In this document: piece by piece, positions 7,799-60,107 of the stretch | Layout of the letters: each line of letters starts with the position of its first letter | Numbering within the stretch: the stretch's first letter is position 1 | DNA from: Minisyncoccota bacterium | GTDB taxonomy: Bacteria; Patescibacteriota; Minisyncoccia; Phycocordibacterales; UBA5272 | NCBI GenBank assembly: GCA_018062965.1 | Contig: JAGORG010000002.1 | Coordinates: 1,860 to 65,859 of the forward strand | Reading direction: 5' to 3' | Length of the DNA: 64,000 bases | Translations under genes and position numbers: made by a program | The notes under the pieces: model-generated | Database searches by the model: none | Told to the model about the DNA's origin: nothing | The model's input: the letters and a program-made list of their open reading frames with translations, nothing else

Positions 7799-7822
7799 AA
7801 AACCCCGCCGAAGGCGGGGTTG
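7799..7822. terminator. hairpin aaccccgccgaaggcggggtt
   Basis: Perfect GC stem between the small gene at 7839 and dnaG. Confidence 0.5.
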
Positions 7823-19808: not shown

Positions 19809-20144
19809 AAATGTAGTTTGTATTAAGGTTAATGTGATTATTTGCGCTCGACTTCTTTTCGATGAAGACTCTTCTATCAAGAAAAGATAGATGTATGGTT
19901 ATCGCAACGCGTCACATAAACTGACTACACAAGGATATCCATAAGGAAATAATATGACTATTCTAGCAGATAAGATATGTTTTGTCAATGTTAGGATTTT
20001 TAAAATACATAATACAGATTCTTTTCTTTTTACTTTCCCGTCGAACTAAACGGCATACTTTTTTGCTAAAAAGTTGCCTCCCTCTCAACTCGCCAGTTTC
20101 CGAGAGTTAGTTCTCACGGGAAAGTGGAGTTTGTTACTATACAA

Positions 20145-20172
20145 AATAAAAAACCCGCCGAAACGGGTTTTC
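20145..20172 (-). terminator. hairpin aaacccgccgaaacgggttt preceded by an A-run
   Basis: Sits downstream of the minus-strand gene ending at 20194. Confidence 0.5.
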
Positions 20173-20193
20173 CGCCGTTGGGCGAGTTGCAGT

Positions 20194-20652
20194 TCAGTGC
20201 ACAGTCTGGATGCGCTTCTGGGCTTGCGCCACGAAGCAGTTCACCTGACCTTCACCTTCCAGCAAACAGAACGCGAGGAACGCGATACTGTCTGCGTCTT
20301 CCGTGGAAGGCGAACCCCACGCCGACTTTTTGGCCGTCTCAGCGAGAAGCTGGCGCTGACCGATGAGTTCGCGGTAGAAGTCGTCGACGTTGTTGTCGTC
20401 GCCGACGTTCTTCACGAGCTCGGGCAGGAGTGCCACGACCTTGGTCATCGCCGTTTTGCCGAAGATCCGCGAGAAGCAGGCCTCCAGCATTTCGGGAGTG
20501 ACGTCAGGGCGCAAGCGCACGGGTTCGTCCCAGTTGGTCATATAGGTCTCGTGGACCATCCTGAACACCTTCGATGCCAACTGCCTGTGAGGGAAGAAGG
20601 TCACGTCGGTGGGGTTTTGACGGAACTGGGAGAAGTTTTCAAAGAAGTTCAT
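20194..20652 (-). CDS. hypothetical protein (152 aa), start MNFFENF; GC-elevated
   Basis: AGGAGG lies 5 nt upstream of the ATG. Has its own promoter and terminator. GC is clearly higher than in flanking core genes. Confidence 0.55.
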   Translation of the reverse strand: MNFFENFSQFRQNPTDVTFFPHRQLASKVFRMVHETYMTNWDEPVRLRPDVTPEMLEACFSRIFGKTAMTKVVALLPELVKNVGDDNNVDDFYRELIGQRQLLAETAKKSAWGSPSTEDADSIAFLAFCLLEGEGQVNCFVAQAQKRIQTVH

Positions 20653-20703
20653 AGACCCTCCTCTACGGTTAGTGGCGGGATTGCCACAGTCTTGAACATA
20701 TAA

Positions 20704-20732
20704 AATATAGCACACTATTATGTAAAAGTCAA
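20704..20732 (-). promoter_or_regulatory. near-consensus sigma70 promoter TTGACT-17-TATATT
   Basis: The minus strand reads ttgacttttacataatagtgtgctatatt. Confidence 0.5.
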
Positions 20733-20761
20733 GTATGTAAGCCTATACCTACAAGGTATTT

Positions 20762-20793
20762 AAAAATAAAAAAACCGCCGGTGAGGGCGGTTG
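20762..20793 (-). terminator. hairpin aaccgccggtgagggcggtt preceded by an A-run
   Basis: Same style as the 20145 terminator. Confidence 0.5.
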
Positions 20794-20817
20794 TGGTTGT
20801 CTGACCGGCGCGGTCGA

Positions 20818-21111
20818 TCAGGCGGCAACGGGTTCGTCTTCTGCGACGAGACCTTCTTCGCCGTAGAGGAAGAACTGCGCGCCGGACTTGCTGTTCTTGC
20901 GGTATTCCGCGAGCGCCATCAGACCGGCGGCCTTGGTTTGGATGCTGCCCTGCATCAGGTCGACGTTGCCGTCCGGCACATCGTCAACGGTCTGCGGAGG
21001 CTTCGCACCCGGCGGCAGGCCACCAAAGATGAGGATGACAAACTTGTCGGCAGAGTTCTGGTCGGGACGGGCCTGGAAGACACCATCTTTCGTGTTGCGA
21101 TTGTTGTCCAT
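20818..21111 (-). CDS. hypothetical small protein (about 97 aa), high GC
   Basis: The ORF has its own promoter and terminator. Start taken at MDNNRN; an alternative ATG lies at 21165. Confidence 0.45.
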   Translation of the reverse strand: MDNNRNTKDGVFQARPDQNSADKFVILIFGGLPPGAKPPQTVDDVPDGNVDLMQGSIQTKAAGLMALAEYRKNSKSGAQFFLYGEEGLVAEDEPVAA

Positions 21112-47678: not shown

Positions 47679-48053
47679 TTATTTACTGAGGTGTTCGTGG
47701 ATAAATTGCAGTTTGTCTCCGTTTCGAATAATTACATTTGTTCCCCGACCGCTTCCGCTCTTTTGTACCCCATCAACTATTCCCGACCAATTAAAGGTAT
47801 AGGTAATAGAAGCTGAATTTGAATCGGCGACTATGATCTTGAGGTCGGAAAGTGAATAAGTCTCGTTTTTAATTGAGCCCCAAGTGTTCTCAAAGGCTTT
47901 TTGAATAGCTTCAATACCTACAAAATCACCGTCCGTAAACCGGTATATGGCTTCAGAATGAACCAAACCAATAACATTAGAAAATACGTGGGAATTTGTA
48001 ACATCCTCGTACTTTTTTAAGAATTCTTTTATTTCTGATTCTGTGATGTTCAT
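47679..48053 (-). CDS. NTF2-like (SnoaL/DUF4440-like) small protein
   Basis: Size and alternating pattern are typical of the NTF2 fold. Weak. Confidence 0.4.
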   Translation of the reverse strand: MNITESEIKEFLKKYEDVTNSHVFSNVIGLVHSEAIYRFTDGDFVGIEAIQKAFENTWGSIKNETYSLSDLKIIVADSNSASITYTFNWSGIVDGVQKSGSGRGTNVIIRNGDKLQFIHEHLSK

Positions 48054-48214
48054 GGATTTTTTTAGGTACTCGGGTCTAGTTCGACACTTTTTTATTTTGG
48101 CGGAGATGGTGAGTTAGGTGCCTATAGGGTTAATCCGTGTAAGGTTATTCTAGCATCTTTGGCTTAGTCAGTTTGAGGATAGTGGGTTGGATAAATATAT
48201 TTCAAATGTTGACT

Positions 48215-48469
48215 CTAGTTTAGGGTAAACATTAAGTAAATAAAAGGTGCCCAACCTAAAAAGAAAATAATAAAAAAAGAAAAAATTAGTACCTTTTTTA
48301 AATTAGTGCGGAAAGTTTTACTTTTAACTACTTCTCTGACTTTGCTTATATTTTTATTGTCACCATAATTTTTTATGAAATATACATATACCCACTTAAT
48401 TATAGCTATAAGTCCTGCGAGGCTTATTATCACAAGAAACTGCTCAACAAAGGTTAAGTTATTATTCAT
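48215..48469 (-). CDS. small membrane protein (84 aa) in AT-rich islet
   Basis: Two hydrophobic helices. Very AT-rich codon usage. Confidence 0.4.
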   Translation of the reverse strand: MNNNLTFVEQFLVIISLAGLIAIIKWVYVYFIKNYGDNKNISKVREVVKSKTFRTNLKKVLIFSFFIIFFLGWAPFIYLMFTLN

Positions 48470-48602
48470 AGTAGTTAGTATAACAAAAGAGTTTGATGAG
48501 TATATATTTTTGGGAACCTTCGTAGAAGAATTATCTACGAAGATAAGGAGTTAAAGCCACTTGCTCAATAAAATGTTAAAATGTGAACTTTGAATTTACT
48601 TT

Positions 48603-49103
48603 TTACAGAGCATAATTCTTAGCTGGCTCTACAACCTCCTCCCATCCATAAACTTCTAATATACCTATTTTACTTGTATCAAAAGTTGGTAGAGGTGAAG
48701 GCAATTTACCAATAGAAACTAAGATTCCATACCTGTAGTTATAAGGTTCATTAAAATATGTAGATTCTATTTTTCTTAGGTCTGAAGTAAATTGTTTAAG
48801 TGTTGGATTCTTCTTAACTTCAAAAACTACGAAGTTATCTGAATTATTACCACGATGATGAATCGTAATATCAGGTCTTTGATTATTATATTTAACTAAC
48901 TCAACATCTAAATCATATTCTGGAAATTGTGTATGTAGTACCTGTCTTAGATGAGAACATATATTTAACTCCGAGGTATACCAAACCGAAGAATCATTAT
49001 CAGATATCCATTTTGCTGCATCTCTAACTTTTCTTTTGATTTCTTCTATATTCATAACTAAAAGCATAGCAAATGATAGTGGTCGAAATTTAAAAACCAT
49101 CAA
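48603..49103 (-). CDS. hypothetical protein (166 aa) in AT-rich islet
   Basis: Long ORF in a region of roughly 28% GC. Confidence 0.45.
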   Translation of the reverse strand: MMVFKFRPLSFAMLLVMNIEEIKRKVRDAAKWISDNDSSVWYTSELNICSHLRQVLHTQFPEYDLDVELVKYNNQRPDITIHHRGNNSDNFVVFEVKKNPTLKQFTSDLRKIESTYFNEPYNYRYGILVSIGKLPSPLPTFDTSKIGILEVYGWEEVVEPAKNYAL

Positions 49104-49166: not shown

Positions 49167-49372
49167 TGGCGGTATTTGTTGGACAAAGTTCGAAAGTATT
49201 TTGCTGAAAATCCCGAAGAAGAAATCTGAATGGACTCGGCAGGGCGAAACAATTTGTCTGGGGGAAAGGATTCGCCCTGCCTCGGCTCTTTTCCCGCCCG
49301 CAGGAGGGGTCTGGGGAGGAATGCGGGCGGGTTTCGGACTGGGGGTTTTCGGATTTCAAAAATTCGCGGCTA
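49167..49372. repeat. IR-a' : 206 bp GC-rich repeat, inverted copy of 51355-51556 (about 99% identical)
   Basis: Direct comparison of the two stretches. Contains the hairpin cccgcccgca...tgcgggcggg. Ends at a TGGCGG junction. Confidence 0.9.
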
Positions 49373-49965: not shown

Positions 49966-51066
49966 TTATTCCGTGTCGTAGGAAGTTTTGAGCTTTTGTT
50001 CTTTCTCAAATCTTTCTAGTGCTAATTGAATCAAGCGATCTATAAGCTCGGTATAAGAAATTCCGGTTGCCTCCCATAATTTTGGATACATGCTAATCGA
50101 AGTAAATCCGGGGATAGTATTGATTTCATTGACCAAAATCTCCCCGTTTTCTTTAAGGAAGAAATCAACACGACCAAGTCCCTCACACGCAAGAGTTTTG
50201 AAAGTTTTAACTGCAAGTATTTGTACTTTCTTTACAATTTCTTCGGGCAACTTTGCGGGTATCTCAAGTGCCGCGCCATGCTCGTCTATGTATTTTGCTT
50301 CGTAAGAATAGAAATCGTGATTAGAAATGACTTCTCCAGGCACAGAAGCAATCGGATCGTCATTTCCGAGAACGGAACATTCAATTTCTCGTCCTTTAAT
50401 ATTTTCCTCGATGAGAATTTTCCTGTCGTACTTAAACGCCTCTCGGATTGCCTTATCAAAATCCTTTTCCTCGCTGACTTTACTCACCCCAACCGAAGAA
50501 CCCATATTTGCGGGCTTTACAAAAAATGGCAATCCTAAATTTTTGACGGCTTCCTCGTAAGTTGGAATATCTTTTTCTTTGCAAGTCAAAAATTTTCCTA
50601 TCGGTATTCCTGCATCTCTTAGCAATCTCTTCATTACATCTTTGTCCATTCCAACCGCCGAACCTAAAACGCTTGCTCCAACAAAAGGAATATTGGCGAG
50701 TTTTAGCAAACCTTGCATTGTTCCGTCCTCACCGAATGGTCCATGTAATATCGGAAAAACTACATCAATAGATTTGTCTGATTCGTGAGTATCAAGATTT
50801 GCTATTCTTCCGTCGCTTTCTGGAACAAGAGCAACACTCTGACTTGTTTCGTTATTGAGTTTAATCAATTTTGGATTTCCGCTATTTAGAAAAAATTTTG
50901 AACTGTCCGCCAAAAGCCATTTTCCCTTTTTATCCACGCCAATAAGAATTGGTTCGTATTTTTCTTTATCAATAGCGTCAATAACATTTTTGGCGGATTG
51001 CAAAGAAACCTCGTGCTCCGCTGATTTTCCGCCAAAAATTATTCCGACTTTAATTTTCTTTTTCAT
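49966..51066 (-). CDS. ddl: D-alanine--D-alanine ligase
   Basis: ATP-grasp fold. N-terminus GIIFGGKSAEHEVSL. Omega-loop SYEAKY retains the Tyr. Codon usage differs from the core genes. Confidence 0.85.
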   Translation of the reverse strand: MKKKIKVGIIFGGKSAEHEVSLQSAKNVIDAIDKEKYEPILIGVDKKGKWLLADSSKFFLNSGNPKLIKLNNETSQSVALVPESDGRIANLDTHESDKSIDVVFPILHGPFGEDGTMQGLLKLANIPFVGASVLGSAVGMDKDVMKRLLRDAGIPIGKFLTCKEKDIPTYEEAVKNLGLPFFVKPANMGSSVGVSKVSEEKDFDKAIREAFKYDRKILIEENIKGREIECSVLGNDDPIASVPGEVISNHDFYSYEAKYIDEHGAALEIPAKLPEEIVKKVQILAVKTFKTLACEGLGRVDFFLKENGEILVNEINTIPGFTSISMYPKLWEATGISYTELIDRLIQLALERFEKEQKLKTSYDTE

Positions 51067-51068
51067 AA

Positions 51069-51269
51069 TTATTTCTTGAGCAAGTCATCAACCGAAACTT
51101 CAAGGGCTTTCGCAATCCTTTGAATTGTTTCGATAGTAGGGTTGGGGCTTTCGTCCAACTCTATTTTTACAACAGTATTTAAAGATAAATCGGCAAGTTT
51201 TGAGAGTTTATCTTGCGAAAGCCCTTTCTCTTGCCGAAATCGTTTGATGTTCTTGCCTATTGCTGACAT
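51069..51269 (-). CDS. XRE-family helix-turn-helix transcriptional regulator (66 aa)
   Basis: HTH_3 pattern IKRFRQEKGLSQDKLSKLADLSLNTVVKIE. Confidence 0.75.
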   Translation of the reverse strand: MSAIGKNIKRFRQEKGLSQDKLSKLADLSLNTVVKIELDESPNPTIETIQRIAKALEVSVDDLLKK

Positions 51270-51354
51270 AGTAGATTATAATGTATGGAAAGTGATATAA
51301 TACTTGTATGACTTGCAAATCAATAATATCAGTTTTCCATTCTTTTTTCAAATG

Positions 51355-51556
51355 TAGCCGCGAATTTTTGAAATCCGAAAACCCCCAGCCCGAAACCCGC
51401 CCGCATTCCTCCCCAGACCCCTCCTGCGGGCGGGAAAAGAGCCGAGGCAGGGCGAATCCTTTCCCCCAGACAAATTGTTTCGCCCTGCCGAGTCCATTCA
51501 GATTTCTTCTTCGGGATTTTCAGCAAAATACTTTCGAACTTTGTCCAACAAATACC
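51355..51556. repeat. IR-a: inverted copy of 49167-49372
   Basis: Sequence comparison. One mismatch seen. Confidence 0.9.
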
Positions 51557-51674
51557 GCCAGAATTCGGAATTCAAATTTCCCGAAAAAATATGGTCGGCG
51601 CGAAGCGCCGTCTGTTCTGTATTCCCCCCACAAAATCCTGATTCTGAAAGGATTCGCCACGCTCCGCGTGGCTC
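51555..51674. repeat. IR-b: 120 bp inverted copy of the 3' end of the recombinase gene (53085-53204)
   Basis: Exact reverse complement. Encodes a pseudo C-terminus ...EPRGAWRILSESGFCGGNTEQTALRADHIF on the minus strand. Confidence 0.9.
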
Positions 51675-51701
51675 CTCGTTTGCCAATACAATTTCAATTT
51701 T

Positions 51702-53213
51702 ATGAATAATCACACCAGAAAGTTTTTCATATACACTCGCAAATCAACCGACACAGAAGATCGGCAAGTGAGAAGCATTTCAGATCAACTGGCCGAACTC
51801 AAAGAATTAGCGGTTAAAGAGCAAATTGAGGTCGTTGATATTTTTGTAGAAAAACAAACCGCTAAAAGTCCGGGTCGGCCAGTATTTAATGAAATGCTTC
51901 TCCGTATCGAGCAAGGCGAAGCAAACGGAATTTTAGCGTGGCACCCCGACCGATTAGCGAGAAATAGTGTTGATGGTGGCAAAATTATCTACTTGCTCGA
52001 TACCGAAAAACTTGCCGAACTGAAGTTCCCAACTTTCTGGTGTGATCCGACACCGCAAGGCAAGTTCATGCTTTCAATCGCTTTTTCGCAATCCAAGTAT
52101 TATGTTGATAATCTCTCGGAAAATATTAAGCGTGGTCATCGCAACAAAGTGAAAGACGGAATATGGCCTCAAATGTCTCCGCTCGGATATGTAAATGTGA
52201 AAGGTGCTGGAATAGTACCCGATGAGAATATTGCTCCGTTAATCAAGAAAACATTTGAGGCATACTCGTCTGGGTCTTTCACTTTGCGCCAACTCCGCGA
52301 CAAATTTAACGGACTTGGCTTGAAGCGAAAAAGCGGAAAGGAACTTGCGGTGTCGAACTATCAGCAAATCCTCAAAAATCCTATTTACACCGGTCTGATG
52401 AGGTATAACGGAGAGATTTTTGAGGGAAAGCACGAACCGATTATCACAAAGAAACTTTTTGATTCCGTTCAAGAAGTGATGATGAGAAAATCTAAGCCGA
52501 AAGGTAGAGGCTTGAAAGATTATCTATACAGGGGATTTTTCCGTTGCGGAGAATGCGGTTGTTTCATTACTACCGAAACACAGAAAGGCCATAACTATCT
52601 CCGCTGTACCAAACGGAAAAATCCTTGTGAGCAAAAATATGTCCGCGAGGAAATCATCACTTCTCAAATCAAAACGGAATTACAAAAAGTTTCTTTGCCA
52701 CTCGATTGGGCAAACTGGATGATTGTCGAAAACGAGAAAGATCGACAATCGGAAGTCCAATCGAGCGAGATTTTTTCTCAGAAGACAAAAGATGAAATTT
52801 CTCTTTTGGATTCCAAAATTGAGAAGCTGATGAACGCCTATTTGGAAAACGTTTTATCACTTGAGGAATATCGTGATTCTAAAAACAAGTTGGTTGCCTC
52901 AAAACAGCTTCTCAAAGAGAAATTCTCATTTTTTGAGAAAAAATCTCATAATCGGTTCGAACTTGCTGATAGATTCATAAAATCAAACGTAGAATTGGCA
53001 AACGAGGGAACAAATGAAGATTTTCTTCATTTGTTCAAAAAAGTCGGTTCGAACTTTTTAATTAAAGATCGAACCGTACTTTTTGAGCCACGCGGAGCGT
53101 GGCGAATCCTTTCAGAATCAGGATTTTGTGGGGGGAATACAGAACAGACGGCGCTTCGCGCCGACCATATTTTTTCGGGAAATTTGAATTCCGAATTCTG
53201 GCGGAGAATGTGA
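51702..53213 (+). CDS. large serine recombinase (resolvase N-domain, recombinase domain, zinc ribbon)
   Basis: N-terminus YTRKSTDTEDRQVRSISDQ with the catalytic Ser. RCGECGC...C...C zinc ribbon. About 503 aa. Confidence 0.85.
   Translation: MNNHTRKFFIYTRKSTDTEDRQVRSISDQLAELKELAVKEQIEVVDIFVEKQTAKSPGRPVFNEMLLRIEQGEANGILAWHPDRLARNSVDGGKIIYLLDTEKLAELKFPTFWCDPTPQGKFMLSIAFSQSKYYVDNLSENIKRGHRNKVKDGIWPQMSPLGYVNVKGAGIVPDENIAPLIKKTFEAYSSGSFTLRQLRDKFNGLGLKRKSGKELAVSNYQQILKNPIYTGLMRYNGEIFEGKHEPIITKKLFDSVQEVMMRKSKPKGRGLKDYLYRGFFRCGECGCFITTETQKGHNYLRCTKRKNPCEQKYVREEIITSQIKTELQKVSLPLDWANWMIVENEKDRQSEVQSSEIFSQKTKDEISLLDSKIEKLMNAYLENVLSLEEYRDSKNKLVASKQLLKEKFSFFEKKSHNRFELADRFIKSNVELANEGTNEDFLHLFKKVGSNFLIKDRTVLFEPRGAWRILSESGFCGGNTEQTALRADHIFSGNLNSEFWRRM
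53085..53204. repeat. IR-b': inverted partner of 51555-51674, inside the recombinase 3' coding end
   Basis: Ends with ...ctggcgg exactly at the tRNA 3' end. Confidence 0.9.
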
Positions 53214-53288
53214 GATTCGAACTCACGGAACCGGTAAAGGTTCGACGGTTTAGTAAACCGTTGGTTTAAACCACTCACCCAATTCTCC
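53202..53288 (-). tRNA. type II tRNA (long variable arm, G73, Ser-like) with an apparent ACT anticodon
   Basis: Acceptor GGAGAAT/ATTCTCC. T-arm GTGAGTTCGAATCTCAC. Anticodon stem ACGGT/ACCGT with loop TTACTAA. Needs a tRNAscan check. Confidence 0.6.
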
Positions 53289-53304
53289 ATATATTTTGGA
53301 AACG

Positions 53305-53452
53305 TGACTGCACGATGAGAATCGAACAACCTTCGCTACGCTATCGCTAAGCTACGGTTTCGGAACCACTCGGTTCCGATTCCTCCTCCACGGGGAAACT
53401 CCCGTTTCCCCGACCCCTTTCCCGTTCGAATCTCATCATCTCTTCCACCTGT
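53305..53452. repeat. about 95 bp structured core flanked by inverted tRNA 3'-end-like fragments
   Basis: Left arm GTTCGATTCTCATCG (minus sense). Right arm GTTCGAATCTCATCATCTCTTCCACC (plus sense). Internal hairpins tcggaacc..ggttccga and ggggaaa..tttcccc. Confidence 0.45.
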
Positions 53453-53493
53453 AAACAGAAAAGCCGGGGAGTGTCCCGAGCTTTTCTGTTTAT

Positions 53494-53581
53494 GCGGAGA
53501 CGATGAGATTCGAACTCATGAAGGGCGTAAACCCTTGCCTCGTTAGCAGTGAGGTGCCTTCGACCAGCTCAGCCACGTCTC
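53494..53581 (-). tRNA. tRNA-Ser (GCT)
   Basis: Anticodon loop CTGCTAA. Long variable arm AAGGG..CCCTT. T-arm CATGAGTTCGAATCTCATG. Discriminator G73. Confidence 0.8.
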
Positions 53582-53823
53582 CATTCTTCTATTACTTTTC
53601 TAAAACCGTTACCTCCTTTATACGACTTAAGAAATTTTTCTACTTTTCTTACTTCTTCGATTGAGGAAAACTCTTTTGAGCAAAGTAGACTCCATTCACC
53701 GCGAGAAGTAGTACGTCCACCTGTATGACTCTTATGTCTTTGTGTTCGCTTAGAAAGTTCAAGACACGAACCAGTGTAATGCTTACCTGTATTCTTGTCT
53801 TGAAGAACATAAACGAAAGCCAT
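53569..53823 (-). CDS. GIY-YIG nuclease domain protein (YhbQ/UPF0213-like)
   Basis: FVYVLQDKNTGKHYTGSCLELSKRTQRHKS...GEWSLL resembles the YhbQ family. The stop overlaps the tRNA-Ser 5' end. Confidence 0.6.
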   Translation of the reverse strand: MAFVYVLQDKNTGKHYTGSCLELSKRTQRHKSHTGGRTTSRGEWSLLCSKEFSSIEEVRKVEKFLKSYKGGNGFRKVIEEWRRG

Positions 53824-53839
53824 TTTTGTAGTATAAACC

Positions 53840-53906
53840 CTTGCCTCGTTAGCAGCTCGCCCCGCTAAGCGGGGTAAAGTGCCTTCGACCAGCTCAGCCA
53901 CGTCTC
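53840..53906 (-). pseudogene. partial duplicate of the tRNA-Ser(GCT) 5' half with a 23 nt hairpin insertion
   Basis: GGAGACGTGGCTGAGCTGGTCGAAGGCAC[TTTACCCCGCTTAGCGGGGCGAG]CTGCTAACGAGGCAAGGGTTTA, then diverges into the GIY-YIG gene. Confidence 0.6.
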
Positions 53907-54147
53907 CGTATTATTTTTGTCTAAAACACTTATTGTTGTGCACGCTTTGATATATATCTTATCAGGTCTTCGCTGTAAGCTCGCATCAAAAGTTTGCTAA
54001 CTTTTGATATCTTCGGAGCCAAGCTTCTCGAGCAACGTCTCCGTATTTTTATACAATTTACCTACACACTTCCTGCACGTTTTTATTCAATATTTTCCTA
54101 CTGAATGTGTTGTATCTTATCACAAAACACCCTTCTGTGCTACCGAA

Positions 54148-54447
54148 CTATTGCGCCAATTCTTCGCGAATCATACGCTCTAACTTTTCTAAATCAACTG
54201 TTTTTCCTTGCATTGCAAGCCTTCCATTTACCAAAAAGATTGGCGCATGCCATGCCCCCTTCCATATCACTCTCCACCAATTAGGTAGCCACTCTTGTAC
54301 TTCAAACGTCACATCCTGACCTGCGAACTTTTCTCGCACCAAGTCATTGATAACTAGCTGAGACAATTCACACTCACCACACACTGTCTTGATACGAAAT
54401 AGCCCCCATGATCCCGCCCAACGATACTGTGTGATAGTTACTTTCAT
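54148..54447 (-). CDS. thioredoxin-fold protein (glutaredoxin-like, CxxC)
   Basis: CGEC motif near the N-terminus. About 99 aa. Confidence 0.45.
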   Translation of the reverse strand: MKVTITQYRWAGSWGLFRIKTVCGECELSQLVINDLVREKFAGQDVTFEVQEWLPNWWRVIWKGAWHAPIFLVNGRLAMQGKTVDLEKLERMIREELAQ

Positions 54448-54452
54448 ATACG

Positions 54453-55136
54453 ATGTATACTACCATAATGCATAAGCGTCTCACTATAACTGTAGCCATT
54501 CTGTGGGGGATAGCGATTCTCTTCTTTTTCCGAGAACTTTATGTGTACGCATTTGTCGAAGCAATGGGTATACCAAAAGCACTCGAAATGTTTGGCACCG
54601 AACTGCAAAAAGCAATCATGGGATTTGGAGTATTCACCCCTCTTTTGTTTATCTTGCTCTACAGCATACGACCACTTGTTCTTTTCCCGGCTTCTATCAT
54701 GACAATTACATCAGTATTTTTATTTGGACCATACGGAGGATTCGCTATTAGTTATGTGGGAGAATTGTGCTCTGCGGTTGTTGCGTTCTTTGTTGGAAAA
54801 TACTTCGGCCAAGAGTTAGGGCTAACCAAGCGAGTTGCGTCTACAAAAATAGGATCATACTTTCAAGGGAATCCATTTACATCTGTGTTAGTTTTACGCC
54901 TTGTACCACTCTTTCCTTTTGACTTTGTGAATTATGCATCAGGTGTTGCAAAACTACCGACATCGGCATACCTGTACGGCACAGCACTCGGCGTTCTACC
55001 AGGACTTGCGATGTACATCTTTTTAGGATTCTCACTGATGCACACCGAATACCTGCTCCTCGCACTTTGTCTGTTTGGTGTTTTGATTGGGGTATCAAGG
55101 TACTTCAAACCACGCTTATCGCAAAGCAAACAATAA
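54453..55136 (+). CDS. DedA/TVP38 family membrane protein
   Basis: Conserved LRLVPLFPFDFVNYASG motif. Confidence 0.75.
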   Translation: MYTTIMHKRLTITVAILWGIAILFFFRELYVYAFVEAMGIPKALEMFGTELQKAIMGFGVFTPLLFILLYSIRPLVLFPASIMTITSVFLFGPYGGFAISYVGELCSAVVAFFVGKYFGQELGLTKRVASTKIGSYFQGNPFTSVLVLRLVPLFPFDFVNYASGVAKLPTSAYLYGTALGVLPGLAMYIFLGFSLMHTEYLLLALCLFGVLIGVSRYFKPRLSQSKQ

Positions 55137-55220
55137 CCACACACAGAGACATACTGTGTATAGAGGTCAGTATCAGAACATGTGAACTGATACACTAAAG
55201 GTAATCACATATACACCTTT

Positions 55221-57285: not shown

Positions 57286-57375
57286 TCAGGGACAATTTTA
57301 GAAACAAGAGAAATATCTCTATAAACACCGAAACTATACATTTAAGGGTTGTTAACTATATACCGACTGCTTAAT

Positions 57376-58602
57376 CTACCTTCCTTTTACCCCAACCGAA
57401 TACCTTTGTAGGAAACCTCCACGGTCTATAGCTTTTATAGCAACCGCCATCGCAAAAATAAGTATCGAAAGCGAAATATATGCGTTTCCGGGACTTGTCA
57501 TATCCATAAGAATCCCAACCGTGAGCGGACCAATCATTTCTCCTATACTTGAGACACTGCGCATAACACCCTCCACTCGTCCAAAGTGCTCTGGTTTAGT
57601 CGACGACGCAATGAGCTCGTTACTACCCACCGAAATAAGTTCAAGGATACTACTGATCGCAAACATAATAGCAATCTTCCAGTACAGGCTAGTCATAAAC
57701 GCAAGTGACGCCAAAAGAAATGCAAACAACACCAAACCAGTAACCAAAGACTTATACCCTGTTTTATCAAACACCCTCCCAAGATTCCAACCAGTAAGTG
57801 TAGGAAGTGCGTACGCAATACCCATCAGTATCACAGGTGTCAGACTCCCTCCTTCTTTGTAGACTTCAATAGGCAAAAAGAATACAACGACAGCACCAGT
57901 AAATGCTATGAGAAAATTAAATCCAAGAATCCCTTTCAAAAAAAGCCCCCAGCTTTTTACTTCCTTCCAGAGGTTTATTGAAAAAGCGTGTGGAATAGCG
58001 TGGAACTTCTCTTCGTGTTTACGAAATGTAAGGATAACCAACAGACTTAAAAATGAAAAAGGAGTGATGAGGAAAAGGAGCGTAGTGATAGAAACGTATT
58101 TAACCAACACAATACCAATAAGCGCAGCCGCTATCCACCAAAAGTTAGCAACAGTATCGAAATAGCCAAACACCGTGGCAACTTTGTTCTTGGCTGCGTG
58201 CCGCATAATATACGTCTCTCTTCCCACTACATCTAACCCCCAACTCACACCGTTAATCAATCTAGCAATAACAATAAATACTACAAGCCCTGTTACCCCT
58301 GCCAAAAAGTAGCCCAAGCCCACAAATAGATACAAACACGCCCCGACTAAAATAAGCGTAGTTGCACGAACTCTATCAGCTAATATACCGATAACGGGAA
58401 GCGCTAAAATAAATGCGATATCAAACGAAGCTTTCAAAAATCCCGCTTCCGCAAAACTGTTTCCAAAAGAAAAAAGGAGTACTGGGATGAGCGACTCAGC
58501 GAAACCCCAACCAAACCAACGTACACTTGTAATAAAAGTAATAACTTTTACACCGTACGGGATGTCCTGGCTATCCAAAAGAAGCCTGAGTTTAGCTAAC
58601 AT
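57376..58602 (-). CDS. MFS transporter
   Basis: About 12 hydrophobic helices, 408 aa. Confidence 0.7.
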   Translation of the reverse strand: MLAKLRLLLDSQDIPYGVKVITFITSVRWFGWGFAESLIPVLLFSFGNSFAEAGFLKASFDIAFILALPVIGILADRVRATTLILVGACLYLFVGLGYFLAGVTGLVVFIVIARLINGVSWGLDVVGRETYIMRHAAKNKVATVFGYFDTVANFWWIAAALIGIVLVKYVSITTLLFLITPFSFLSLLVILTFRKHEEKFHAIPHAFSINLWKEVKSWGLFLKGILGFNFLIAFTGAVVVFFLPIEVYKEGGSLTPVILMGIAYALPTLTGWNLGRVFDKTGYKSLVTGLVLFAFLLASLAFMTSLYWKIAIMFAISSILELISVGSNELIASSTKPEHFGRVEGVMRSVSSIGEMIGPLTVGILMDMTSPGNAYISLSILIFAMAVAIKAIDRGGFLQRYSVGVKGR

Positions 58603-58658
58603 GTTGGGTCAGTATATCATGCAGACTTTTCCAAGTTAGGCCATACCTACGCCTCCTC

Positions 58659-60107
58659 CTAACTTTCTGTATTGACTTGTGGGTCAAAAATACTTGGTTC
58701 TTGCTGTATTCCTTGGACTATCTGAGATATTCTCGTAGATCCATAGATAGACGGCATGATACCTACACCATTACAGCCGAGGTTGTAGATAAGTGTTCTG
58801 TTGAGAGGTTCTTCTCCGATGAGTCGCAAACCCGTAGTGGTATACCCGAGGAGTCCATGCCAGCAAAACTGATACTCAACTTTTTCCCCTGGATGCTTTT
58901 TGTAGTTCTCCTTCAAAAAAGCGTCAACATCTTGTTCTGCCCATGGTTCACACATGTCATTTCTGTTATAGAATTCCCCTTCTCTCAAAATCCTTTCTGG
59001 ACCGCCGGTAGATATGAGCCCCATCTCTACACCGTTGTGCATATGAGGTCTGCGGGTGATATAAAAGTACTGCTCTCCAGTTATTGTATCTTTTGGACCG
59101 TGTATTGATGATTTCTTTGGAAAGTAACTTATCGCGACTGGATCCTTTTCGAGACTATCCAAATACGCTGACATAAAATTGATACGTCCGTAGAGCTGAT
59201 GGTGGAACTTTGTATCTATATCTTTACCGGCGTTATTCACCAGACTGAACCCTTCAAAACCATTCGTACACAAAATAACTTTCTTTGATGCGATAGTCAC
59301 GTCCGGTGTAGCATTGTCGGCAATCATCTCGTTTTTATTAAACACAACCTCAGTGAGTGCGCTATCCTTGTCCAAGATGATTCTATTGGCTGGAGTTTTT
59401 TCGTATACACCAAATCTATCTGCATATGTTTCGAGCATGTACTCGATGAGCTCTTCGCATATCTTTGCACTATTGGTTGCACCTTTTGGATATACAAGCA
59501 TCGCAACATAATCGTCACTCCCAGTCTCGAGCATCTTCTTGATATTTTCTTGTGTGGTTATTTCGTAGAGATGAGAAAAAATACTAGGTATCTGACTCAA
59601 AAATGCAAAGTTATCCGCAATGAGCATTTTTTCTATAGGGATACCTCCATCGTACCGTATCATATTATCCGCCAGATGCGAGATAACTTGAGAGAGCTGT
59701 GTCATGCCAGCATACCCGGTAAACTTGTATATCGGCGTTTTGAGGTCTACCTCTTGTTGTATCTTGTCTAACTCAAGCCATGCGGACTCAACATTTTTCT
59801 GAGCAGCACATGCAAGGTCCACTCCAAACTGAGAAGCGATGTCTGCCAATGGTCGTTCAAAGTATGTAGTGAGCTGTCCCGCATTGTGACCACTTGCTCC
59901 ATGCCCAACTAGATAGCTATCGATGAGCGTGACAGTGTGTTTGGTATCTCGCAAGAGCGTGTATGCAGTAGTAACCCCTGCGATACCACCACCCACTACC
60001 AATATATCTGTTTCGAGGTTCCTATCTAAAACAACAGACTCTCGCGTTCTTTCTAGCTGATGCAGCCATGGGGACAAATTCTTTTTCATGTCGATATAGT
60101 GTAGCAA
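58659..60107 (-). CDS. FAD-dependent oxidoreductase
   Basis: Rossmann dinucleotide motif VVGGGIAGVTTAY at the N-terminus. Confidence 0.7.
   Translation of the reverse strand: MLHYIDMKKNLSPWLHQLERTRESVVLDRNLETDILVVGGGIAGVTTAYTLLRDTKHTVTLIDSYLVGHGASGHNAGQLTTYFERPLADIASQFGVDLACAAQKNVESAWLELDKIQQEVDLKTPIYKFTGYAGMTQLSQVISHLADNMIRYDGGIPIEKMLIADNFAFLSQIPSIFSHLYEITTQENIKKMLETGSDDYVAMLVYPKGATNSAKICEELIEYMLETYADRFGVYEKTPANRIILDKDSALTEVVFNKNEMIADNATPDVTIASKKVILCTNGFEGFSLVNNAGKDIDTKFHHQLYGRINFMSAYLDSLEKDPVAISYFPKKSSIHGPKDTITGEQYFYITRRPHMHNGVEMGLISTGGPERILREGEFYNRNDMCEPWAEQDVDAFLKENYKKHPGEKVEYQFCWHGLLGYTTTGLRLIGEEPLNRTLIYNLGCNGVGIMPSIYGSTRISQIVQGIQQEPSIFDPQVNTES

Follow-up and report, generated by a model that had tools for sequence, protein, structure and literature searches.

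A compact, apparently selfish GIY-YIG nuclease element residing in tRNA genes, mostly of Patescibacteria

In the window (the whole stretch of DNA analysed, 64,000 nucleotides) we identified a 325-bp block, 53554-53878, which with a probability of about 0.6 is a single copy of a small selfish element that would live in tRNA genes and spread by nuclease-stimulated recombination. The element looks like an apparently undescribed family of selfish DNA, resident in tRNA genes without destroying them. Its three constant parts are a gene for a bare GIY-YIG domain (about 80-90 aa), a G+C-rich palindrome and a duplicated part of the host tRNA, and the duplication leaves one intact tRNA beside one broken copy. 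A sequence-only reading had regarded this region as a rearranged hotspot, i.e., a local accident; the "23-nt hairpin insertion" noticed there proved to be a conserved hallmark of an element family. The neighbours of the element, namely tRNA-Ser(ACU), a recombinase element and a structured spacer, are independent of it. The features are as follows.

51555-53204, plus strand: mobile element, a recombinase gene between inverted repeats (repeat search, Pfam, phrog_95)
53199-53288, minus strand: tRNA-Ser(ACU), with A34 in a split codon box (ARAGORN anticodon ACT; Rfam)
53311-53447, minus strand: structured element of about 130 nt between the tRNA-Ser genes (repeats, fold, comparison with locus L113)
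53452-53492, minus strand: terminator-like hairpin directly 3' of tRNA-Ser(GCU) (inverted repeat; minus-strand terminator-like site)
53494-53582, minus strand: intact tRNA-Ser(GCU), the functional copy beside the element (ARAGORN; Rfam 50.0 bits; same as the L113 tRNA)
53554-53878, minus strand: compact element copy, a 325-bp block with GIY-YIG gene, palindrome and duplicated tRNA 5' part
53569-53823, minus strand: gene for an 84-aa single-domain GIY-YIG nuclease (translation and Pfam)
53834-53855, minus strand: copy of tRNA-Ser(GCU) positions 34-55 (22/22 identity to 53528-53549)
53860-53874, minus strand: signature palindrome or hairpin CCCCGC-TTA-GCGGGG (sequence; L113 alignment)
53879-53907, minus strand: copy of tRNA-Ser(GCU) positions 1-29 (29/29 identity to 53554-53582)
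54031-54050, minus strand: degenerate copy of the promoter-proximal flank, AAAAATAC, followed by tRNA positions 1-12, GGAGACGTTGCT (repeat search)

The copy at 53879-53907 comprises the acceptor 5' strand and the D arm, i.e., the 5' part of the broken tRNA, and is joined to the upstream flank that in the related locus L113 precedes the intact tRNA. The copy at 53834-53855 comprises the anticodon loop, the 3' strand of the anticodon stem and the start of the variable arm, and is followed by a 10-nt spacer and the ATG of the GIY-YIG gene. Between the two lies a 23-nt segment, 53856-53878 (TTTACCCCGCTTAGCGGGGCGAG), which contains the palindrome and stands in place of the 5' anticodon-stem strand (CTCA); when aligned with the empty site in L113, it amounts to a 19-nt insertion and two substitutions. 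At the far end of the gene, the stop codon (53569-53571) lies within the intact tRNA-Ser(GCU), with an overlap of 14 nt. Both this overlap and the second tRNA-Ser 5' copy carrying the hairpin segment had been described from the sequence alone and were borne out, the latter by the 100% repeats; exact repeats of 29 and 22 nt with matching spacing are far beyond chance. A third copy of the tRNA 5' end, at about 54031-54050, had gone unlisted. This degenerate copy is older and is also present in L113, and no signal of a GIY-YIG remnant was detected in the 123 nt between it and the next tRNA copy. The segment 53556-54255 was recovered at 100% identity in four independent assemblies, each ending inside the 29-nt repeat, and because all four reproduce it, the structure of the window is no assembly artefact.

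The palindrome was rejected as an intrinsic terminator, there being no T-run after the hairpin. A look-alike elsewhere in the window, at 7804-7820, is a true terminator. The place of the terminator-like hairpin 3' of tRNA-Ser(GCU) is taken in L113 by a hairpin of unrelated sequence. A simple scan identified no promoter for the GIY-YIG gene; in the window arrangement the gene is probably transcribed from the tRNA promoter, because the broken copy keeps the flank preceding the intact tRNA in L113.

The 84-aa protein belongs to the GIY-YIG superfamily, PF01541 matching residues 2-68 with 40.9 bits (cut-off 22.6, E 2.7e-10). Residues Y5, Y16, G18, R26, R29, H30, H33, E62 and N72 were invariant in 20 homologues. 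The AlphaFold2 model (pLDDT 84) has a three-stranded sheet with flanking helices in the order beta-beta-alpha-beta-alpha-alpha (E2-9, E15-20, H23-32, E44-52, H55-67, H72-82), and the catalytic residues and, as modelled, the fold are intact. Foldseek matched the model to 1zg2, Slx1 (4xlg/7cq3), I-TevI (1ln0) and UvrC (1yd6), with UPF0213 BH0048, Slx1 and I-TevI as the top fold matches. BH0048 (1zg2) was the best match in the PDB sequence search as well (E 3e-6), and its Foldseek alignment had 33% identity (E 4.7e-4). The earlier label "YhbQ-like" is appropriate only in the sense that 1zg2 is the closest solved relative by sequence and fold: the size and the single-domain build are common to the window protein and the stand-alone bacterial UPF0213/YhbQ-YazA proteins, whereas the C-terminal motif, KSYKGGNAFKK, differs. 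The NCBIfam group I intron endonuclease family TIGR01453 matched the first 37 residues only, with 26.5 bits against a cut-off of 56. According to Pfam and the AlphaFold model, the whole length is taken up by the catalytic domain, with no DNA-binding domain. The anti-phage defence and phage protein families searched with the nuclease gave no match.

Relatives of the protein, at 27-75% identity, were found in 80 loci of other genomes, from uncultured bacteria and mostly of Patescibacteria; these loci were retrieved by two peptide motifs of this subfamily, and the statistics hold for that subfamily only. A co-oriented tRNA gene overlapped or adjoined the ORF in 77 of the 80 loci, and two of the remaining three have a contig end within 60 nt. 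The tRNAs concerned include Ser, Gly, Tyr, Pro, Glu, Thr, His and others. They occur in two mirror-image layouts, either broken copy, ORF and tRNA or tRNA, ORF and broken copy, and the duplicated part is 5' or 3' according to the layout. The order seen in the window (a hairpin-bearing 5' portion of the tRNA, then the ORF and the intact tRNA-Ser(GCU)) recurs in four unrelated neighbourhoods (L005, L006, L008-11 and L012). That the ORF, earlier regarded as either the mobile agent or a passenger, is part of the inserted unit is indicated by these 80 loci, where the relatives are nearly always accompanied by a partial tRNA copy and a hairpin; we found no relative in which the gene occurs without the duplicated tRNA part.

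In 69 of 83 loci the palindrome core CCCGC..GCGGG was located near the ORF, within the broken copy of the tRNA. Its general form is YCCCGC(C)-N-(G)GCGGGR, and the arms are invariant although the proteins share only 27-40% identity; the centre is variable, with 1-3 free bases. At the outer pair we counted C-G 54 times, T-A 33 times, T.G four times and C.A once, so that a coherent C-G/T-A switch is seen in 87/92. The strict motif was present in 50 of 89 loci, compared with 7 matches in 529 kb of flanks. In class I tRNAs the palindrome replaces positions 27-43 exactly; more generally, the anticodon arm of the broken copy is replaced or interrupted, and in some clades the D loop. Four loci (L022, L024, L026, L065) contain multiple palindromes. 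Where the hairpin follows the D arm, the broken copy matched the local tRNA at 21-24 of 24 positions, a figure for D-arm loci only, as this own-versus-other test fails in clades with a D-loop hairpin.

The uninterrupted arrangement sought by alignment to related genomes is provided by L113, where the tRNA is identical, the flanks are 92-94% identical and the upstream flank runs directly into the intact tRNA. L113 is without both the GIY-YIG unit and the recombinase element, in agreement with the earlier suggestion that the tRNA genes here are insertion sites. The window and L113 thus display a presence/absence polymorphism at a conserved target, as in homing, which reads alike as gain or loss; judging from the two sequences, a deletion between the 29-nt repeats would account for the difference just as well. 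In another locus, L096, tRNA-Ser(GCU) is found without the GIY-YIG gene and with the recombinase element, and the gene was present at none of 31 tRNA-Ser(ACU) loci, four of which also have tRNA-Ser(GCU). Because occupied sites keep an intact tRNA, the palindrome altering the second copy only, the usual reasoning for homing, that insertion removes the target site and thereby confers immunity, would not seem to apply. Moreover, since the palindrome is found only in occupied alleles, it is not the target in the empty allele.

We suggest that the element would spread and be lost via homologous recombination through the tRNA-derived arms, which are the only sequence common to unrelated genomes at the site. 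The nuclease clades track the tRNA type and not the host label, and recombination through tRNA arms would explain how each clade is associated with one tRNA type despite having no DNA-binding domain. The nuclease could initiate the process by breaking or nicking an unoccupied tRNA gene or, alternatively, the palindrome.

A more far-reaching version, possible but in our view doubtful, is that the element represents a new class of mobile DNA in which a bare GIY-YIG nuclease acts with its own palindrome and is targeted by tRNA arms, and that, in addition, tRNA-Ser(ACU) is an unmodified-A34 decoder dedicated to AGU. The nuclease would then cut or nick the palindrome, which could serve as a dimer site or, within the highly transcribed tRNA locus, form a hairpin; the homology arms taken from the tRNA, rather than the protein, would determine the target. 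GIY-YIG chemistry would be combined with host recombination in a logic comparable to that of RAYT/REP or IS200/IS605, and the variable palindrome centre might be a trace of repeated cutting and repair.

Alternatively, the arrangement could be a resident host module that is not mobile, with the GIY-YIG protein having a cellular role at its tRNA gene and the differences between genomes being losses only; we consider this quite unlikely. The protein could, for example, guard or repair a heavily transcribed, integrase-targeted gene, and the hairpin-bearing partial tRNA could be a regulatory leader or trailer RNA. The occurrence of one tRNA type per nuclease clade across many lineages fits long vertical inheritance and a tRNA-linked role. 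The strong purifying selection on the hairpin arms, the probable dependence of the ORF on the tRNA promoter (the ORF start lies 0-60 nt beyond a tRNA 3' end in 20 of the 80 genome loci), the fact that no copies of the element were found in the viral contigs searched and the possible origin of the L113 difference by deletion are also in line with such a role. However, several copies can reside on different tRNAs of a single genome (L027/L084 in one MAG, L047/L091 in another), and the element is missing at the same tRNA in many related genomes. Tandem reiterations and truncated ORFs likewise argue against a host module: L052 is an array of broken copy, ORF, broken copy, truncated ORF and tRNA, two ORFs each are present in L034, L055 and L064, L008 has two broken copies, and the repeat in L012 takes in the last codons of the ORF. 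In addition, the acceptor stems in L015 are mismatched (GGAAACG/CGTTTCC in the intact tRNA, CGTCTCC at the 3' end of the hairpin-bearing copy), which points to foreign tRNA sequence. Finally, the hairpin lies upstream or downstream of the ORF depending on the layout, its place being constant with reference to the tRNA copy rather than the mRNA. Speaking against a mobile element, near-identical copies in clearly different hosts were not found, one pair (L054/L056) having been tested; recent horizontal transfer was rejected for this pair, since besides 98% identity of the ORF there is 92-96% identity in the near flanks, as expected for genomes of close relatives.

The selfish element favoured here can be compared with several known systems. 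SegB of the T4 tRNA gene cluster is reportedly a free-standing GIY-YIG homing endonuclease linked to segmental amplification of the tRNA locus; Seg genes show selfish inheritance and spread by break-induced recombination with homologous flanks. The likeness to the Seg genes of T4-like phages is a GIY-YIG nuclease gene among tRNA genes. However, Seg proteins and I-TevI have a catalytic domain and a DNA-binding region, whereas the window protein is an 84-aa catalytic domain only; the window element is without phage context, and it alone has the partial tRNA duplication and the conserved palindrome. Integrase-borne islands and prophages, which use tyrosine or serine integrases, duplicate the tRNA 3' part and keep the tRNA functional, and the window element resembles them in being inserted in a tRNA gene whose function is kept by partial duplication. 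In contrast to these islands, the 325-bp unit holds the GIY-YIG ORF only, duplicates the tRNA 5' part and carries a specific palindrome in the broken copy. REP/RAYT and IS200/IS605 TnpA, with subterminal hairpins, share the combination of a small nuclease gene and a short conserved G+C-rich palindrome, and multiple palindromes can accumulate; these are HUH/Y1 transposases not tied to tRNA genes, whereas the window element encodes a GIY-YIG protein and is tied to tRNA genes and partial tRNA duplications. A group I intron in the tRNA gene was rejected, as Rfam gave no intron model at E up to 1 (50500-54500) and ARAGORN shows the functional tRNA-Ser(GCU) to be continuous and uninterrupted. Selfish DNA in tRNA genes has been surveyed in the same phylum; its tRNA home is shared by the window element, which is without an intron, and that survey makes no mention of GIY-YIG. 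We found no description of the GIY-YIG/tRNA module or of tRNA-Ser(ACU) in the open-access literature.

A profile search for small GIY-YIG proteins yielded 2934 clusters at 50% identity. If the association found in the 80 loci holds for these clusters too, many small genes annotated as "GIY-YIG nuclease family protein" would be passengers of tRNA genes and not cellular repair enzymes. If our interpretation is true, the element would be a minimal natural system of homology-arm-guided gene insertion, with an 84-aa nuclease, a 16-nt palindrome and two short arms, and would be of interest for homing without sequence-specific proteins. In practice, the element interferes with assembly, four contigs being cut off in the 29-nt repeat, and with gene calling, ORF starts and ends being misplaced where they run on through tRNA sequence.

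The recombinase gene (51702-53213, 503 aa) has PF00239, PF07508 and PF13408 in the order of large serine recombinases and matches the phrog_95 integrase over residues 2-448 (E 4e-77). It is flanked by a perfect 120-nt inverted repeat (51555-51674 and 53085-53204), which had not been listed before; an assembly artefact was rejected, as the repeat is present in at least four independent loci. The right arm ends 6 nt inside tRNA-Ser(ACU), the element being inserted directly after CCA, and the inverted repeat abuts the tRNA-Ser 3' end in L093-L097 too. More than 7500 homologues were found, and L113 represents an empty site. The recombinase gene is part of an element different from that of the GIY-YIG gene, independently mobile and very abundant, that targets tRNA-Ser genes. 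It appears very abundant in Patescibacteria and accounts for many contig breaks at tRNA-Ser genes.

The proximity of this element, 350 bp away at another tRNA-Ser, and the presence of its relatives at the 3' end of GIY-YIG-associated tRNAs in L006, L014 and L044 could suggest that recombinase-mediated integration, excision or inversion left the broken tRNA and the hairpin behind as debris together with the GIY-YIG gene, the latter being a passenger. This is highly improbable: the recombinase element joins after CCA whereas it is the 5' part that is duplicated in the GIY-YIG block, the module has also been found at Gly, Tyr, Pro, Glu, Thr, His and other tRNAs, the loci inspected in this respect (L008-L012) have no recombinase gene in their 5-kb flanks, and the two elements vary independently, L113 having neither and L096 the recombinase only. 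Tandem tRNA gene duplications are common, but the chance that one was later hit by an unrelated small ORF and hairpin, with no wider meaning, is negligible, as the three-part arrangement with an identical palindrome recurs in about 80 loci and the comparative data contradict it.

The tRNA adjoining the recombinase element had been described as type II, G73 and Ser-like with an unusual ACU anticodon. This was confirmed by ARAGORN, which called tRNA-Ser(ACT), and by Rfam (RF00005, 56.7 bits, gathering threshold 29, E 9e-11); the variable arm is of type II, the discriminator is G73, CCA is encoded in the gene and the anticodon loop reads TTACTAA, and the tRNA-derived fragments reported in the region are real. 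A34 was kept in 26 of 31 metagenome matches. In 13 distinct sequences 99.7% of the stem positions were paired, and six pairs were changed on both sides, versus 0-1 in slid controls. These compensatory stem changes show that tRNA-Ser(ACU) is a conserved host tRNA lineage with a maintained cloverleaf, and not an odd by-product of rearrangement.

In bacteria, tRNA-Arg ACG is an A34 tRNA in which the adenosine is deaminated to inosine. The genomically encoded wobble A is common to this type of tRNA and tRNA-Ser(ACU), whereas ACU falls in the split box of AGY Ser and AGR Arg, where inosine at position 34 would misread AGA. AGA is used in this genome at 5.9 per 1000 codons, and tRNA-Ser(GCU) is present too. 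Reassignment of AGA to Ser, as inosine-34 would imply, was rejected, because the invariant Arg29 of the GIY-YIG protein is encoded by AGA. Rare unmodified A34 tRNAs occur in bacteria (PMC11066159). The rare wobble A34 of tRNA-Ser(ACU) in a split box bears on how AGU and AGC are decoded, with AGA as Arg, in reduced genomes.

An element of about 150 bp with copies of the tRNA 3' end around a hairpin-rich core had also been recognised between the two tRNA genes, and its arms were confirmed: the 19-nt arm at 53424-53442 is 95% complementary to the 3' part of tRNA-Ser(GCU), and 53312-53327 is a 16-nt direct copy of that part. The inverted and direct copies of the T-loop and acceptor 3' sequence form a long closing stem enclosing two internal hairpins, with a predicted fold of -66.6 kcal/mol (z = -6.2 vs shuffles). 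In Rfam, only the two tRNAs were matched, and no family was found for the spacer or the broken tRNA at E up to 1. In L113 the spacer is 92% identical, with two compensatory G-C to A-T double changes, located in the two hairpins. The spacer is therefore a conserved structured element and not debris, and a partial homologue is located downstream of tRNA-Tyr in L077.

We found that a GIY-YIG nuclease gene, a palindrome and a partial tRNA duplication form a three-part unit, which leaves one tRNA intact and recurs on many tRNA types. The sequence-only reading of the window had proposed an unusual serine tRNA with an ACU anticodon, a GIY-YIG gene whose stop codon overlaps an intact tRNA-Ser(GCU), and a second tRNA-Ser 5' half carrying a hairpin insertion, and all of these were borne out by the following features:

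53199-53288, minus strand: tRNA-Ser(ACU), called Ser(ACT) by ARAGORN; Rfam 56.7 bits
53494-53582, minus strand: intact tRNA-Ser(GCU), called Ser(GCT) by ARAGORN; Rfam 50.0 bits
53569-53823, minus strand: GIY-YIG ORF of 84 aa; Pfam GIY-YIG, score over the cut-off
53834-53855, minus strand: exact repeat of tRNA-Ser(GCU) positions 34-55, upstream of the ORF
53879-53907, minus strand: exact repeat of tRNA-Ser(GCU) positions 1-29, upstream of the ORF
~54031-54050, minus strand: degenerate repeat of tRNA bases 1-12 along with the matching upstream AAAAATAC, from the repeat comparison

The stop codon of the GIY-YIG ORF lies 14 nt inside tRNA-Ser(GCU), and the two repeated tRNA parts are separated by TTTACCCCGCTTAGCGGGGCGAG, at which place the intact gene has CTCA. 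The segment 53556-54255 was found unchanged in four independent assemblies, each ending within the 29-nt repeat, and the encoded protein shows full identity to MBP9782346.1, which is annotated in a Candidatus Pacebacteria/Paceibacterota MAG and thereby places the window in a Patescibacteria (CPR) genome.

The protein has 21 close homologues. In four unrelated gene neighbourhoods (loci L005, L006, L008-11 and L012 of other genomes or metagenomes) the 5' part of tRNA-Ser(GCU) with the same hairpin precedes the homologue, whose ORF enters the start of a second tRNA-Ser(GCU) copy. This second copy is complete in L006, L008-11 and L012, and the L005 contig stops 36 nt into it. The 5' part of the broken copy agrees with the local tRNA, since the acceptor GGAGAGT of L005 and the D loop GCCGAGTGGCC of L008 each occur in both copies. 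When the family alignment was scanned against one genome per species, 80 loci with 27-75% identity were retrieved, and a co-oriented tRNA gene overlapped or adjoined the ORF in 77 of them; of the remaining three ORFs, two lie within 60 nt of a contig end and one starts 90 nt after a contig start. A CPR genome carries about 45 tRNA genes per megabase, so that chance adjacency would, by a rough estimate, be at the percent level. The associated tRNAs include Ser (GCU, GGA, UGA), Gly (CCC, GCC, UCC), Tyr, Pro, Glu, Thr, His, Gln, Met, Asp, Ala and Lys, and in a distance tree the proteins cluster by tRNA type and not by host label.

The loci follow two layouts. In layout A, which is that of the window, a broken tRNA copy is followed by the ORF and then by the intact tRNA; the ORF commonly extends 9-38 nt into the tRNA, and the database proteins then have tails such as ...GDVAEWSKAPHC. 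In layout B the intact tRNA ends 0-60 nt before the ATG, and the ORF is followed by a broken copy consisting of the D arm, the hairpin, the variable region, the T arm and the acceptor 3' strand. In the database proteins P0013, P0016, P0017, P0018 and P0020, gene callers carried the GIY-YIG ORFs into tRNA sequence at both ends. Their C-terminal ...AEWSKAPHC results from translation of the tRNA-Ser 5' half, and their N-terminal extensions from translation of the broken copy; annotated lengths are therefore unreliable.

The broken copy of both layouts contains the palindrome YCCCGC(C)-N-(G)GCGGGR. Its strict form was present near the ORF in 50 of 89 loci, compared with 7 occurrences in 529 kb of flanks, and its core was found in 69 of 83 non-redundant loci. 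The arms are constant while the proteins diverge to 27-40% identity; the outermost pair is C-G in 54 cases, T-A in 33 and mismatched in 5, and the centre varies in both sequence and length. In class I tRNAs a 16-nt palindrome stands exactly for the 17-nt anticodon arm (L031, L028, L052). The palindrome takes the place of the anticodon stem's 5' strand in the clade of the window; a second Ser clade and the Tyr clade carry it within the D loop. Two or three palindromes are present in some broken copies. An intrinsic terminator was rejected as an explanation, since no T-run follows the palindrome. Elsewhere in the window (7804-7820, minus strand), CCCCGCCGAAGGCGGGG followed by a T-run forms an ordinary terminator with the same stem sequence.

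The unit reiterates, decays, and varies in presence between close relatives. In the tandem array at a tRNA-Pro(GGG) (L052, 3934-4505), a broken copy, a full ORF, a broken copy whose palindrome is the T-A variant and a truncated ORF precede the intact tRNA. Two tandem ORFs occur in L034, L055 and L064, L008 has an extra broken copy between ORF and tRNA, and the repeat of L012 reaches 25 nt upstream of the tRNA, taking in the final ORF codons. At another tRNA-Ser(GCU) locus (L015, 2306-2505), the acceptor of the intact tRNA is GGAAACG/CGTTTCC, whereas the adjoining full-length hairpin-bearing copy ends in CGTCTCC and resembles the tRNA of the window in its 3' end and trailer. This mismatch implies that the two copies derive from different tRNA lineages. 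Copies on different tRNAs were also found within one MAG (L027 with L084; L047 with L091).

The uninterrupted arrangement, which had been proposed as something to look for in relatives, was present in L113, a closely related locus from another metagenome whose MscL and 292-aa genes are 92-94% identical to those of the window and whose tRNAs are the same. There the flank ...AGTGTTTTAGATAAAAATAATAC leads directly into the intact tRNA-Ser(GCU), whereas in the window the shared flank leads into the broken copy, then 325 extra bases and only then the intact tRNA. Either an insertion in the window's lineage or, in that of L113, a deletion between the 29-nt repeats could account for the difference; the older 12-nt tRNA relic upstream is common to both. 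The search for tRNA-Ser(ACU) yielded 31 loci, four of them with tRNA-Ser(GCU) as well; a GIY-YIG gene occurs in none of these, nor at the tRNA-Ser(GCU) of L096. Where the window has a terminator-like hairpin behind tRNA-Ser(GCU) (53452-53492), L113 has an unrelated one of similar size (2848-2890), with both flanks 92-100% identical. The genes for a 99-aa and a VTT-domain protein (54148-55151) and for an MFS transporter (57316-58669) are missing from the otherwise collinear L113, indicating further indels in the neighbourhood.

The GIY-YIG protein consists of the catalytic domain only. Tyr5, Tyr16, Gly18, Arg26, Arg29, His30, His33, Glu62 and Asn72 are invariant, and the AlphaFold model (pLDDT 84) has strands and helices in the expected order, the closest solved structures being UPF0213 BH0048, Slx1, the I-TevI catalytic domain and UvrC. 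The protein scored under the cut-off of the curated group I intron endonuclease model, it matched no phage or defence family, and no relatives were found in viral contigs. A profile search of 1.84 billion cluster representatives returned 2934 clusters at E ≤0.001, most of them of 80-125 aa.

These arrangements could be explained by a donor form comprising the ORF and a tRNA copy in which the palindrome replaces the anticodon arm. One crossover with a tRNA gene would yield either layout, namely layout A if it fell 5' of the palindrome and layout B if 3', and only those outcomes that restored a working tRNA would survive. Specificity would then be held by the tRNA arms and not by the nuclease protein, which would account for the fidelity of clades to tRNA types and for the absence of a DNA-binding domain. 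Recombination would be started by a break or nick from the nuclease. If the cut were in the intact tRNA gene, occupied alleles would not be immune; if it were in the palindrome, it would fall within the donor, which ordinary homing does not foresee. The invariant arms and free centre of 1-3 bases are compatible with a hairpin loop as well as with a dimer site cleaved centrally; 3' overhangs of 2 nt are typical of GIY-YIG enzymes, and the site of Eco29kI is cut as CCGC^GG. The layout A ORF is probably transcribed from the tRNA promoter, because the broken copy retains the tRNA's own upstream flank; a simple sigma-70 scan upstream of this ORF detected no promoter. Since the stop codon lies within the tRNA, it would be lost on RNase P processing, and we speculate that this could act as a brake on ORF expression.

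A full-text literature search returned no description of a GIY-YIG/palindrome/tRNA module. GIY-YIG goes unmentioned in a recent survey of patescibacterial tRNA introns, and a survey of rRNA insertions reports GIY-YIG ORFs in rRNA genes only sparsely. Among known systems, the unit comes nearest to free-standing GIY-YIG homing genes such as T4 SegB and to integrase-borne tRNA islands, and it differs from each in defining features. We regard it as a selfish nuclease gene at a conserved target, with a real chance that it works by a so far undescribed mechanism.

For tRNA-Ser(ACU), metagenomes were scanned with an anticodon stem-loop query in which position 34 was free, and 31 loci were obtained, 26 with A34 and 5 with G34. 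The G34 matches have different D arms and come from other lineages. The A34 genes share the D arm type of the window and comprise 13 distinct sequences, among which six or more acceptor stems occur; standard pairs fill 99.7% of their pair cells and six pairs are changed on both sides, compared with 0-1 in slid controls. The search pattern had already set the anticodon stem and some of the variable arm, so these are uninformative here. The gene is frequently beside tRNA-Ser(GCU) (L113, L118, L125, L126). In the long genes of the window AGU is twofold more frequent than AGC (10.1 versus 5.0 per 1000 codons). AGA is also in use and codes for the invariant Arg29 of the GIY-YIG protein, so that inosine at position 34 would misread. 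The simplest inference is an unmodified A34 decoding AGU. A literature search found no description of this tRNA type.

The 503-aa large serine recombinase (51702-53213) is flanked by perfect 120-nt inverted repeats (51555-51674 and 53085-53204), the right one of which contains the codons for the 40 C-terminal residues and stops at the CCGCCA of tRNA-Ser(ACU). Homologues in L093, L094/95, L096 and L097 are flanked by the same repeats (94-100% complementary, 1401-1413 nt apart), and their right arm meets a convergent tRNA-Ser (GGA, GCU or CGA), as in L118 and L126. In L006 the tRNA runs in the direction of the recombinase gene, which implies that the segment inverts or that the element inserts both ways; it may be invertible, or it may be a serine transposon with terminal inverted repeats. 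More than 7500 homologues were found, the top 120 being 79-92% identical over the full length with variable tails. The element is independent of the GIY-YIG unit. The tRNA-Ser(ACU) site is unoccupied by it in L113, and the same GIY-YIG locus lacks the repeat after the tRNA in L008-11 and has it in L014. A second inverted repeat of 206 nt (99.5%; 49167-49372 and 51355-51560) brackets a 196-aa gene, a D-Ala-D-Ala ligase (Ddl) and an XRE regulator. This block terminates in CCGCCA, resembling a tRNA 3' end, and also lies ahead of the left 120-nt repeat in L093, L096 and L097. In L097 (1910-2713), beside a recombinase element, a LAGLIDADG_3 ORF stands between tRNA-Ser(CGA) and tRNA-Glu(TTC), another nuclease gene among tRNA genes.

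The spacer between the two serine tRNAs (53311-53447) has, as first read, tRNA-derived ends: one arm is the complement of the tRNA-Ser(GCU) 3' part, and together with a direct copy of the same part it closes a hairpin-rich core. It folds much better than its shuffles (z = -6.2) and is 92% identical in L113, with a G-C to A-T double change in each of two internal hairpins; these double changes point to selection on the structure. After a tRNA-Tyr in L077 stands a related core whose end is formed by the palindrome, then CGAG and a directly repeated tRNA 3' end. The spacer, with three examples in all, may therefore be a relative of the GIY-YIG unit that has no ORF, or else an RNA that is processed. 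Local G+C reaches 0.53 at 20001-21000 and 0.31 at 48001-49000 of the window, against a background of about 0.42.
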